DNA of 30,677 nt from Candidatus Woesearchaeota archaeon (GTDB taxonomy: Archaea > Nanobdellota > Nanobdellia > Woesearchaeales > GW2011-AR9). The translations under genes and the position numbers were made by a program. The notes under the pieces were generated by a model. That model ran no database searches. It saw only the letters and a list, made by a program, of their open reading frames with translations, and had not been told where the DNA came from. Positions 4,619 to 10,583 of this stretch are shown in pieces. The first letter of the stretch is position 1, and the number at the start of each line of letters is the position of its first letter. The DNA is taken from NCBI GenBank assembly GCA_016185625.1, contig JACPND010000040.1, positions 1 through 30,677 of the forward strand, given 5' to 3'.

Positions 4619-5857
4619 TTAGTAGTAGGTCTTTTCTTCGTCGTCTTTCTTCAATCTGCTAAAGCCGATGACCAGACCGATGATCACTAACAGGACCACC
4701 AGCGCAATCAACGCAATTTCTAAGCCGTTTCGCAGATTGACACTTTGCTTGGCAGCGCCAGCCACATTCGCTTTCAAGCTCACTGTTTGCAGCACGTCGC
4801 TTCCTGACTTGATCGCTACGGAGGCAACTTGTGCGCTGCCGACAGCAGCCGCGGATGTGGGAGTCACATCAACATAGACCACTTGGTTTTTGTTGGACTC
4901 CAGCACGACTAAGCTTTCACTCACTTTGGCATTCGCCCAGTCGCCCGTCACTACTTCAACCATATAGGCCTTGCTGCCTGTTCCGGCATTGGTCAAAGCG
5001 ATGGCGTAGGTCGCAGTTTGGCCGACAGCCACATTTTGGCTTTCCGGTCCGACTGCCAGCACTAACTTATCGCTTGCCTGGAACAGTTCATTGGCAATGA
5101 CATTTAATTTGAACGTTTTGGTCACGCTTTCATACTCATCGTAACCAGCGGTCACTTTGACGTCATATTCGCCCGGTTGAGCCGTCGCAGGAATGCTGAC
5201 GAACATTTCTGGAACATCTTCATACTCGATGTTATGCTTAGCGGTGCTGATCACGTCCACAAATTCGGTCGCACTGACACCCAACGCCGGGATGCTTACG
5301 GTAACTTTGACGTCTTTTTCGTCCTTATCACCGTAATTCTGCAGCAACACCGTAGTCAGCAAGGAGCGTCCCGCTTTTACGGTCGTTCCCGGACTAAACG
5401 CCACGTCGCTGATATCCAATCCATGCCGCACCGGTTCTACTGCCAGCTTGATTTCTTTCACAAGATCGCTAGAATCCTTATTCTTCACGCTGATTTTCAG
5501 CAAGTATTCGCTTTTCTCCAGCTTCTTGGGCAGGGTCAATTCCAGACTTACCGTCTTGGTTGTTCCCTTCGCCAAGTCAAACACATGACTTTGCGCCGTC
5601 AGAGATTCATAGTCGGAATACTCATACCCATCGATTTCAGCCTGCACTTCGATGTCGGTCATGTCGGCTTTGCCTTCAAGTCCAACTTCAAGGTCCAGTT
5701 TTTTTCCTTCTTCTACTGCCAACATAGTTCCGTCAACAGTCACGTCTACATCGTTAACTTTCACGAATGCAAATTCTACTTGCTTCGCGTCAATGGCACT
5801 GACAACTGCCATTAAGCTAACGACAAATACAGCCATTAAACTTAACAGTTTTCTCAT
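4619..5857 (-). CDS. C-terminally anchored cell-surface protein with repeated CARDB/S-layer-like beta domains
   Basis: Signal peptide MRKLLSLMAVFVVSLMAVVSAIDA, then repeated beta-rich modules (for example DVKVTVSIPALG, GEYDVKVTAGY). Ends with a C-terminal TM helix LEIALIALVVLLVIIGLVIGF and a charged tail SRLKKDDEEKTYY. I prefer the ATG at 5857, preceded by GGAGGAAG, over the track's TTG at 5872. Confidence 0.75.
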   Translation of the reverse strand: MRKLLSLMAVFVVSLMAVVSAIDAKQVEFAFVKVNDVDVTVDGTMLAVEEGKKLDLEVGLEGKADMTDIEVQAEIDGYEYSDYESLTAQSHVFDLAKGTTKTVSLELTLPKKLEKSEYLLKISVKNKDSSDLVKEIKLAVEPVRHGLDISDVAFSPGTTVKAGRSLLTTVLLQNYGDKDEKDVKVTVSIPALGVSATEFVDVISTAKHNIEYEDVPEMFVSIPATAQPGEYDVKVTAGYDEYESVTKTFKLNVIANELFQASDKLVLAVGPESQNVAVGQTATYAIALTNAGTGSKAYMVEVVTGDWANAKVSESLVVLESNKNQVVYVDVTPTSAAAVGSAQVASVAIKSGSDVLQTVSLKANVAGAAKQSVNLRNGLEIALIALVVLLVIIGLVIGFSRLKKDDEEKTYY

Positions 5858-5911
5858 TTTATCTTCCTCCAAATTTGTTGAATGTGATTTTTTTTATGTC
5901 AAAACCCTCAG

Positions 5912-5924
5912 TTATATATAAAGG
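5912..5924 (-). promoter_or_regulatory. possible internal TATA-like box
   Basis: Minus strand CCTTTATATATAA sits in the 107-nt gap between the adhesin stop (5980) and the next gene. Confidence 0.35.
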
Positions 5925-5979
5925 TTTCGATTATTTTAGTATTTAAGAGTAGCTACATCATGTAGCTATTCTAAAATGC

Positions 5980-9298: not shown

Positions 9299-9299
9299 T

Positions 9300-10526
9300 T
9301 TATTTCCCCTCCGCTTTGAACATGACGTATCCTGATGTTGCATCTTCAGGTGCGCATAAGTTTTTTGTTTTGTCGGCAAACTTAACCGCCCATTCGCTGT
9401 CTGTGGTATCCAACCCGCCATTCAGAGCACCATACAAGCGACGTACTGCTTGTTCACAATTCTCTGCCGGCACGATGAGGCTTCCCCCTACTGAGGCAAG
9501 GAATTCATTAACGACCTTCTTGACTTCTTTCGGATCATCAACATCAACTTTATCTTGCCAGCTATCGGCAATCCACTTCACCTTATCATTATATTTCCTA
9601 ATCAAATCCTTCACTGTCCCATCCGTTTTTCCATCATTATCCCAATCCACAGGATTTTCATCGGCACGTGCTTTGGCCGCTTCAGCATCTGATAAATCTT
9701 TGAGTTTATTTTCTGCAGCGTACAGATCAGATTTAGTCTTCTGTAAGTCGGCCTCATAACCAGCAGCCATTCGCTGGGAGGCATCTTCTCTGCTCCTCAG
9801 AACTTGTGACATTTGGGCAATACTCTCCACTGTTCCTTCCAATTGCGCCATGGACGAAGGTGGCAGTCCAACCATATCGGTGTATTTTTGTGGAACAGCG
9901 TTGTAGGCAATAACGCCACCCGCAGCTATCGCAGCCACACCGGCAACAACCGCCGCCCAGCCGCGTCGAAATGCGCTCTTTTGAGCAGCAGCGAGATTTT
10001 GTTCAGATTGATTTAGATTTTGTTTAGATTGATTTAGATGATATCCCAGCGAATTTTTCTGTTTACGTCGCAGGGAAGCTAATTCTTCCGTAGACTCCTT
10101 GCCACCCGAAAAATAGTCTGCTGTTCTCTCCAAAGCTTCTTTCTCTTTAGCGTCTTTTTTTGCTGGAGTGATCGAATTAGCGCGTAGAGCTGCTTGAAAC
10201 TGATTCCAAGGCAACAAGCCAGTTGCTACCCATCTATGGACGTAATCTGCTTTATGATCATCACCTTCCGTTATAGCATACAATACATCAAATACATTTG
10301 CTACTGTCTTCGTAAGATAGGCTTCGGCTATTTCTGAATCGGCAGGCACTTCTCCTTTTACCCATTTAAGGGAATCGGCAACATAATCCAATATTCTAGC
10401 ATCACCATGATAGGCCGTAAGAATTTTCTTGCCGACTTCTTCCGCTGCTTTTTTATCCGGAACATTAAATTTTTCGTCTTCTAAATAATTCACAAATGCA
10501 TCCAGAGTGTTGATTGTCACAGCCAT
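9300..10526 (-). CDS. type II membrane protein: cytoplasmic N-domain, single TM helix, extracellular coiled-coil domain
   Basis: No signal peptide. KSAFRRGW precedes the TM helix AAVVAGVAAIAAGGVIAYNAV (positive-inside rule). The C-terminal part is coiled-coil-like and carries DWDNDGKTDG. I prefer the ATG at 10526, with GGAGGAG 6 nt upstream, over the TTG at 10541. Confidence 0.75.
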   Translation of the reverse strand: MAVTINTLDAFVNYLEDEKFNVPDKKAAEEVGKKILTAYHGDARILDYVADSLKWVKGEVPADSEIAEAYLTKTVANVFDVLYAITEGDDHKADYVHRWVATGLLPWNQFQAALRANSITPAKKDAKEKEALERTADYFSGGKESTEELASLRRKQKNSLGYHLNQSKQNLNQSEQNLAAAQKSAFRRGWAAVVAGVAAIAAGGVIAYNAVPQKYTDMVGLPPSSMAQLEGTVESIAQMSQVLRSREDASQRMAAGYEADLQKTKSDLYAAENKLKDLSDAEAAKARADENPVDWDNDGKTDGTVKDLIRKYNDKVKWIADSWQDKVDVDDPKEVKKVVNEFLASVGGSLIVPAENCEQAVRRLYGALNGGLDTTDSEWAVKFADKTKNLCAPEDATSGYVMFKAEGK

Positions 10527-10572
10527 AATTATCTCCTCCAAAATATTACAATACTACTTAAAAGTAGGCACC

Positions 10573-10583
10573 TATATATAAAT
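10573..10583 (-). promoter_or_regulatory. TATA-like box of the envelope operon
   Basis: Minus strand ATTTATATATA lies about 50 nt upstream of ATG 10526. This leaves room for a short leader containing the GGAGGAG site. Confidence 0.45.

Follow-up and report, generated by a model that had tools for sequence, protein, structure and literature searches.

The closest described counterpart, in logic, of the locus treated here is the slaAB operon of the Sulfolobales, in which a large anchorless protein rich in beta-sandwiches, SlaA, is encoded directly upstream of a smaller protein, SlaB, that is anchored by a C-terminal transmembrane (TM) helix and is the more conserved of the two. Other described systems share single parts with it, among them modular Ca2+-binding fibrillar adhesins, bacterial 8-stranded barrels such as OmpX, Ail and OmpA, tethers and trimeric adhesins with a coiled coil and a C-terminal barrel, and the archaeal NPCBM_assoc membrane proteins. 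Ail and OmpX are adhesion proteins themselves. To our knowledge, few uncultured archaea are as widespread as Woesearchaeota, and we know of nothing on their envelope or partner attachment. The window analyzed here is a whole contig of 30,677 bp from a Candidatus Woesearchaeota archaeon, and all counts given for the window cover that contig. Four of its genes, g1 to g4, form a cluster whose gene order, spacing, promoters and domain architecture recur in relatives and whose members evolve at contrasting rates. We give an even chance to the reading that the cluster is a lineage-wide cell-envelope module of Woesearchaeota, of which the window holds a local copy. It probably builds the envelope and attachment surface of these archaea.

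Loci were collected as the DNA around homologues of g4, with open reading frames (ORFs) called on it, and are labelled L001 to L026; the positions of g1, g2 and g3 are termed X, Y and Z. The window and 14 other Woesearchaeota genomes, which make up the 15 loci with the complete upstream part on the contig, share the order permease, X (where present), Y, Z, g4 and geranylgeranyl reductase (GGR). A first-pass annotation of this DNA had proposed a four-gene envelope operon and had named independent occurrence of the genes in relatives, without linkage, as the outcome that would speak against it; the relatives keep them linked. Y and Z are present in all 15 loci and X in 11, the window included. 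The pair of Z and g4 was found in 20 of 20 loci. Of the 13 loci with a visible flank, 12 have a permease of the Trp/Tyr family as upstream neighbour and L017 does not; in L007 the contig stops at this point. An independent route leads to the same place, as both true phmmer relatives of g1 (P0123 and P0124) are encoded at this locus with Y, Z, g4 and GGR after them. Across loci, X has one mid-chain TM helix in 370-920 aa; Y (376-549 aa) has a signal peptide, a helical or Cys-rich middle and a beta-type C-terminal domain of 160-250 aa; Z (684-1241 aa) has a signal peptide and an array of PKD, TSP3 and Big_9 modules. Literature searches returned no paper on this cluster and none on outer-membrane protein (OMP) barrels in DPANN archaea, which agrees with the earlier statement that no described archaeal system of this composition was known to its author.

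ORF calling places all four genes of the window co-oriented on the minus strand: g1 at 9300-10526 (408 aa; NCBI locus tag HYX14_06295), g2 at 8039-9298 (419 aa; HYX14_06290), g3 at 5980-8034 (684 aa) and g4 at 4619-5857 (412 aa). After the TAA stop of g1 (9302-9300), a spacer of 1 nt precedes the ATG of g2 at 9298. The TGA stop of g2 (8041-8039) is followed by candidate ATGs of g3 at 8034 and 8028, with 4 nt to the former, and g3 and g4 are separated by 122 nt. Each of the four ATGs is preceded by a GGAGG-like site. Export or membrane signals are found in every one of the four proteins, none of which has an enzyme domain according to Pfam. The tight packing, the junctions and the exported, non-enzymatic character of the products had been claimed from the sequence at first pass, and the coordinates, spacers and signals bear these claims out.

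The genes differ widely in their rate of evolution. Median global identity across 13 genomes is 58% for the permease, 59% for GGR and 59% for g4, and it falls to 16% for X, 21% for Y and 26% for Z. In the closest pair of loci, L001 and L003, the permease is 86% and g4 96% identical, with X at 40%, Y at 59% and Z at 62%. The slow evolution of g4, together with the conservation of its TM helix, therefore makes it behave as a constrained core component; X, Y and Z behave as exposed, diversifying ones. More than 500 full-length homologues of g4, at 50-65% identity, are found in metagenome-assembled genomes (MAGs) of Woesearchaeota and Nanoarchaeota. The protein consists of a signal peptide, three beta-sandwich domains (27-141, 146-254 and 266-366), a TM helix at about 372-405 and an acidic tail. 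An AlphaFold2 (AF2) model built on a 72-sequence alignment, with a predicted local distance difference test score (pLDDT) of 86, shows the three beta-sandwiches and a TM helix at 375-402. In the 72 sequences conservation peaks at this helix (residues 375-400; window 4655-4742 with the tail), where 18 of 26 positions are invariant; it starts LRNGLE, and the tail ends in an invariant YY. As a separate observation, the conservation of the helix and of YY points to a specific intramembrane partner or to an unrecognized C-terminal sorting signal. The earlier description of g4 as a C-terminally anchored CARDB or S-layer (surface-layer)-like protein holds for the anchor. CARDB stays below its Pfam cut-off (16.9 against 22.7 bits), no S-layer family is matched, and NPCBM_assoc passes instead (35.1 bits, cut-off 24.4).

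The protein at the Z position, g3, has a signal-like N-terminus, no anchor and no TM helix beyond the signal peptide. It is composed of an N-domain, two TSP3 loops, two cadherin-like Big_9 domains, a PKD domain, four further TSP3 loops and a CARDB/NEW3-like C-terminal domain (581-684). Above the Pfam cut-offs are TSP_3 (81.3 bits, cut-off 25; 4e-23), PKD_4 (73, cut-off 27; 2e-20), PKD (55.2, cut-off 23.5) and Big_9 (39.9, cut-off 23.6); below them are Cadherin_4 (21.6, cut-off 25.1), CARDB (14.3, cut-off 22.7) and NPCBM_assoc (19, cut-off 24.4). The proposed anchorless adhesin of 684 aa is thus retained with its TSP3, PKD and Big_9 modules, and its Cadherin_4 and CARDB assignments are not. The motif DxDxDG occurs six times in g3 (136, 159, 497, 520, 538 and 561) and once in g1 (DWDNDG at 294), as had been noted for both proteins. 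The TSP3, PKD and Big_9 modules are shuffled among Z orthologues, which differ in how many they have and how these are arranged, and only 3 of 17 have a recognizable N-domain. All 17 carry the C-terminal domain of about 105 residues, without exception as the last part of the chain, and it is homologous to domain 2 of g4 (blastp, about 1e-6).

The protein g1, at the X position, has a single TM helix (188-212) with RR on its N side and no signal peptide. The natural reading of this arrangement is the N-in/C-out topology, in keeping with the anchor assigned at first pass. A cytoplasmic N-terminal half (1-187) would be followed by the TM helix and a helical segment; the chain would end in an outer C-terminal domain (about 294-408), which is conserved and contains DWDNDGKTDGTVKDL and a Cys pair. 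A word-index search of 5.8 billion proteins returned g1 only, and phmmer against 1.8 billion representatives gave three matches, P0123, P0124 and P0125, the last of which was rejected as spurious, being a repetitive eukaryote-like protein that matches the TM region alone. The similarity of g1 to X of L021 (3e-15) and L019 (4e-14) extends by transitive links to X of L001, L003, L009, L012 and L024. A motif common to the X proteins, C-x(3-7)-P-x(2-4)-Y-[VI]-x-[FIL]-K, lies in the C-terminal tail. Two TM-less paralogues of the outer half of X (194 and 196 aa) lie between X and Y in L001 (4985-6183), and L007 carries a 192-aa ORF in the same place (1451-2029).

The protein g2, at the Y position, has a Sec-type signal peptide and three long helices (73-221) with a pLDDT of 70-87 in a single-sequence AF2 model, followed by a C-terminal half of 200 aa with a Gly/Thr-rich, beta-type domain of 185 aa that ends GARIGYKF. 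A word-index search of the same 5.8 billion proteins returned g2 only. Its sole sequence relative is Y of L012 and L026 (phmmer 9e-17); L026 was the only addition from a metagenome scan for g2 relatives and is the same organism as L012 (99.8% nucleotide identity). The Y proteins fall into a main group of nine loci, the pair of g2 and L012, and several singletons, and neither hidden Markov models (HMMs) nor hhalign links these groups (g2 against the main group, probability 7%). Nevertheless g2 shares position and architecture with Y in 15 of 15 loci. The word-index searches alone would suggest that g1 and g2 are orphan genes, and this is overturned by synteny. The main Y group (L001, L003, L005, L009, L016, L018, L019, L021 and L024) carries a Cys-rich module, C...F.G.G.C...C.G...CYD, and GCNY before the beta domain; g2 and Y of L012 have neither.

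The cluster is preceded by one promoter and divided by a second. Promoter P1 lies before g1 and comprises, on the minus strand, an upstream element CTACTTTAAA (10603-10612) placed 25 nt before the TATA box, a B recognition element (BRE)/TATA box ccaaaagATTTATATATA (10573-10583) about 50 nt before the g1 ATG, and a palindrome CTACTTTTAAGTAG (10554-10567) 7 nt past the TATA box that overlaps the expected transcription start. The TATA box itself reads ATTTATATATA at 10583-10573. When the intergenic regions were anchored on TATA, 12 of 13 loci were seen to keep TTCCAAAAGRTTTATAWA ahead of the first gene of the cluster, in the consensus order ACTACTTTAAAT...TTCCAAAAGRTTTATAWA-N7-CTACTTTnnAGTAGTATT. 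At the palindrome, CTACTTTnnAGTAGTATT is kept across loci whose coding sequences no longer align, and this element may be an operator or initiator. The CTACTTTAAA element is kept in the P1 regions of L001, L003, L018, L019 and L024. Promoter P2, which belongs to g4, lies within the 122-nt gap. Its BRE/TATA reads TTTATATATA at 5922-5913, the TATA box being cgaaaccTTTATATATAac (5913-5922, minus strand), and a perfect 9-bp palindrome TAGCTACAT-g-ATGTAGCTA (5950-5968, minus strand), 12 nt past the g3 stop, has a right half that begins the conserved P2 upstream element. Before g4, TGTAGCTACTYTTRAATRCTAAA is kept in 18 loci and CGAAAGGTTTAWATATAACC in all loci at a distance of 52-145 nt, in the order TGTAGCTACTYTTRAATRCTAAA...CGAAAGGTTTAWATATAACC.

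Spacing follows the same division. The gap between Z and g4 measures 122-324 nt in every related locus and contains the conserved TATA; the X-Y and Y-Z gaps, 1 and 4 nt in the window, are mostly below 75 nt elsewhere. Only L001 and L007, with small extra ORFs in between, have a wider X-Y gap. In the window, CTACT lies exactly 25 nt upstream of TATA at both P1 and P2. The pattern CTACTYTWAA has 3 matches in the 30.7-kb window, solely at P1 and P2, against 0.16 expected; it was derived from these same sites, and the independent evidence is conservation across loci. The two regions (P1, 10554-10612; P2, 5943-5968; minus strand) share CTACT-N25-TATA plus palindromes (CTACTTTTAAGTAG; TAGCTACATgATGTAGCTA), an architecture kept, in the P1 and P2 regions of L001-L025, across genomes in which the coding sequences downstream have ceased to align. 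Together, the element and the palindromes form a candidate binding site for a regulator.

The unit ends with a hairpin, CCTACT-actaaa-AGTAGG (4612-4629, minus strand), that spans the g4 stop, and with a T9-C-T8 tract after it (4577-4594, minus strand). This oligo-T tract and the TATA-like box of P1 had been placed correctly in the first-pass annotation. Its count of a single TATA box and its single transcription unit have to be given up: a second BRE/TATA stands in the g3-g4 gap here and in every relative, and the layout is g1-g2-g3 plus g4. The conserved upstream element shared by P1 and P2 argues for co-regulation, and the best reading is that of two transcription units, X-Y-Z and g4, presumably under a shared regulator, with read-through across the gap possible. 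The stem of the hairpin at the g4 stop was also detected by a terminator scan on the opposite strand; a scan of the window for bacterial-type promoters and terminators did not outperform shuffles, the result to be expected of archaeal DNA. The hairpin is made of the conserved Thr-Tyr-Tyr-stop codons and echoes the CTACT/AGTAG motif of the promoters.

The mechanism that we propose combines a conserved anchored scaffold, g4, with a co-regulated, hypervariable attachment operon, X-Y-Z, and we regard it as being about as probable as not. In this scheme, g4 would be an abundant, slowly evolving type-I membrane protein that holds three immunoglobulin (Ig)-like domains on its conserved TM helix and most likely serves as the membrane-proximal scaffold or anchor layer, a role like that of SlaB. 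The translationally coupled, fast-evolving operon would make the exposed part. Z would be a secreted, anchorless adhesin in which Ca2+ at the DxDxDG loops stiffens the TSP3, PKD and cadherin-like modules and the CARDB-like C-terminal domain docks non-covalently onto a cluster partner, either g4 or Y. Y, also secreted, would contribute a helical stalk with its C-terminal 8-strand beta domain as the base. With its conserved outer C-terminal domain, the bitopic X would connect the outer assembly to the cytoplasm and cytoplasmic membrane. Pressure from hosts or viruses would probably drive the diversification of the exposed parts, and the scaffold would stay fixed. From the sequences we infer every physical contact, the Ca2+ dependence, the abundance and the attachment function; an assembled calcium-dependent surface complex, as first suggested for this locus, is likewise a prediction.

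Several findings count against this scheme or qualify it. A mirror-tree test gave no specific co-variation between g4 and Z (partial r 0.16) and a weak signal between Z and Y (0.45). A DxDxDG-type loop is found in just 3 of 11 X proteins. X is missing from 4 of 15 loci and is therefore not an obligate part of the cluster. In L015 (4702-5787), an extra 361-aa protein with a signal peptide stands between Z and g4, the sole exception to their adjacency. Since the subgroups of X, Y and Z cannot all be linked by sequence, some members may be non-orthologous replacements. A Foldseek comparison of the g4 model with the PDB gave generic tandem Ig-like matches only, with TM-scores of 0.2-0.3 and no S-layer structure; because S-layer proteins usually evolve fast, the slowly evolving g4 may not be a lattice former.

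Some of the same observations would be expected if there were no complex at all and a conserved, highly expressed g4 merely sat beside a hypervariable surface island of unrelated secreted or membrane proteins, repeatedly replaced under viral pressure or by gene flux, with a linkage that is historical. The lack of g4-Z co-variation, the splitting of X, Y and Z into sequence-unrelated subgroups, the four loci without X, the additional ORFs of L001, L007 and L015 and a second slot of variable content downstream of g4 all suit this explanation. Against it, Y keeps its signal peptide, its helices and its beta domain ending in F/W despite the turnover, Z always ends in the same domain, and X always combines one mid-chain TM helix with the common tail motif. 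Gene order and tight coupling are also kept in 15 loci, and the island is preceded by a conserved promoter that has an element in common with that of g4. We consider a purely historical linkage unlikely.

A further explanation starts from the end of the Y proteins. Y could be a membrane-embedded, bacterial-type 8-stranded OMP barrel of the OmpX/Ail/OmpA class with a C-terminal beta-signal; X in the inner membrane and Y in the outer layer would then tether an outer lipid layer, or Y would insert into the membrane of a partner cell and serve as an anchor, and Z and g4 would decorate the envelope. A terminal F/W is found in 14 of 15 Y proteins (penultimate in L016), usually as ...G-Y-[KR]-F, as in OmpX and OmpA. 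Against Pfam OMP_b-brl (PF13505, gathering cut-off 28.7 bits), Y of L021 reaches 27.6 bits (E 4e-6), that of L019 22.2 bits (1.8e-4) and that of L009 17.1 bits (6e-3); there is also an Autotransporter beta-domain match at 2e-3 among the Y proteins, and two of them match NCBIfam Rck/Ail weakly. All these database matches, however, fall under the curated thresholds, and g2 itself gives no OMP_b-brl match in Pfam. With hhalign, the C-domain profile of the main Y group scored 30.6 against E. coli OmpX, whose sequence was verified against PDB entries, compared with 11.5 ± 2.8 (maximum 23.2) for 40 shuffles (about 6.8 standard deviations (SD); probability 45%), and the alignment is in register to the last residue. 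This signal comes only from the cleaner main-group alignment; a mixed Y alignment was not significant against OmpX or OmpA, and the main-group alignment gave no signal with OmpA. Searches of PDB sequences with the Y C-domain profile returned no OMP, the mixed alignment giving 0 matches and a later one a single chance match to an alcohol dehydrogenase.

The g2 domain scored 15.2 against the main-group profile, with shuffles at 11.9 ± 2.2 (about 1.5 SD, not significant). Eight amphipathic strands can be read by eye in g2 and in the main Y group, the loops being long only between strands 3-4 and 5-6 and the turns at the opposite side short, but a similar alternation is expected of a soluble 8-strand barrel. 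Residues 222-419 have a pLDDT below 35 in the single-sequence model, so AF2 gives no confident fold for the C-terminal half, and the four Cys of the beta domain are unusual for OMPs. Of the earlier description of g2, the Sec signal stands and the coiled coil survives as three long helices in the AF2 model; the beta-barrel-like end is neither predicted by that model nor evident from the g2 sequence. We know of no BamA/Omp85 in archaea. Double membranes have been reported for some archaea, including ARMAN (PMC4243693). That Y is such an embedded barrel deserves to be taken seriously but is on balance improbable, and the wider proposal that Woesearchaeota encode bacterial-type OMP barrels with a canonical C-terminal beta-signal, g2 included, paired with X as the partner in the cytoplasmic membrane, is equally doubtful. 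For g2 specifically, a barrel would be deduced from position, architecture and terminal motif. If true, the proposal would mean that an archaeal lineage has a second, outer lipid layer and a tether for it, or that a self-inserting barrel anchors a symbiont in the membrane of its partner cell. It would then have to be asked anew whether beta-barrel membrane proteins and double envelopes are confined to Bacteria and organelles.

Very improbable is a substrate-capture or uptake apparatus working with the adjacent amino-acid permease, with Z as the binder of polymers or Ca2+ and Y as a pore in an outer sheath: the permease does stand upstream in most visible flanks, but it is set apart by 93-379 nt with a promoter between, evolves like a housekeeping gene and is not the neighbour in L017, and none of X, Y, Z and g4 shows a Pfam domain typical of a binding protein, hydrolase or transporter.

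Some features of the flanks were recorded as well. The permease and g1 stand 361 nt apart in the window, where most relatives have 93-235 nt, and the surplus is an AT-rich stretch (10613-10887; GC about 0.38) with no ORF and no obvious feature. Between g4 and GGR lie two ORFs of 258 and 114 aa (window 3364-4525, minus strand) with no Pfam match and no counterpart in relatives; the same gap holds an ORF of 765 aa in L024, 204 aa in L025 and 106 aa in L008, and two of 145 and 82 aa in L001, and is the second variable slot mentioned above. Contamination or a bacterial origin of the contig was considered and rejected, given an intron-containing tRNA gene, GGR, RtcA and archaeal translation genes in syntenic flanks, and the same locus on a 1.56-Mb archaeal contig (L005; Ga0172379_10000001). 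The tRNA gene (12499-12617, minus strand; 119 nt) scores 46 bits with Rfam, was missed by ARAGORN and fits an archaeal origin. Four MAGs titled 'uncultured Methanosarcinales archaeon' (L008, L009, L013 and L018) carry the Woesearchaeota locus with flanking genes 50-64% identical and are probably mislabelled bins.

As a conserved unit the cluster is well supported; its function, as read here, is unproven. The locus provides a concrete, testable parts list for the envelope of Woesearchaeota. The near-invariant g4 could serve as a lineage marker, as an antibody target or as a target for cryo-electron tomography. The hypervariable X-Y-Z operon is an obvious candidate for host or virus specificity, and the two conserved promoter elements point to a dedicated regulator.

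Comparison with known systems places the parts as follows. Bacterial 8-stranded barrels (PF13505; OmpX/Ail/Rck and the OmpA N-domain) resemble the 160-200-aa C-terminal domain of Y in its roughly eight amphipathic strands, its terminal ...GY[KR]F and the near-threshold Pfam and hhalign similarity of several orthologues. However, the host is an archaeon without a known outer membrane or beta-barrel assembly machinery (BAM), the barrel-like domain of Y is C-terminal behind a helical and/or Cys-rich domain, and for g2 no similarity is detected. The part order of Y, from signal peptide through helical stalk to a beta domain with an aromatic end, recurs in OmpM/SlpA tethers, which consist of SLH, coiled coil and beta-barrel, and in trimeric autotransporter adhesins, with their head, coiled-coil stalk and C-terminal barrel. 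An SLH domain, peptidoglycan and a YadA-type head or anchor signature are lacking here, the number of strands per chain differs, and homology was not detected. Modular Ca2+-binding fibrillar adhesins, built from TSP3, PKD and cadherin-like/Big_9 domains, match g3 in its TSP_3, PKD_4 and Big_9 modules and six DxDxDG loops; unlike them, g3 has no cell-wall anchor and no sortase or PGF-CTERM signal, and it ends in the locus-specific, invariant CARDB/NEW3-like domain. Apart from this private C-terminal domain, Z is an ordinary modular adhesin.

The archaeal 'uncharacterized membrane proteins' of COG1470/NPCBM_assoc (NEW3), a name that the Joint Genome Institute (JGI) gives to homologues of g4, are matched by g4 in that it passes the NPCBM_assoc cut-off. 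The g4 family differs in being tight (about 410-460 aa), with its near-invariant TM helix, YY terminus and fixed genomic context, and we know of no characterized member. With SlaA/SlaB, sequence and fold do not match, g4 has no coiled-coil stalk and has its own promoter, Z is a modular Ca-binding adhesin with shuffled domains and not a lattice protein, and X and Y are extra genes. The arrangement itself is the same, with an anchorless g3 next to a TM-anchored g4, the latter being the more conserved, and the two directly adjacent in 19 of 20 loci, and SlaA/SlaB is the nearest counterpart in logic.

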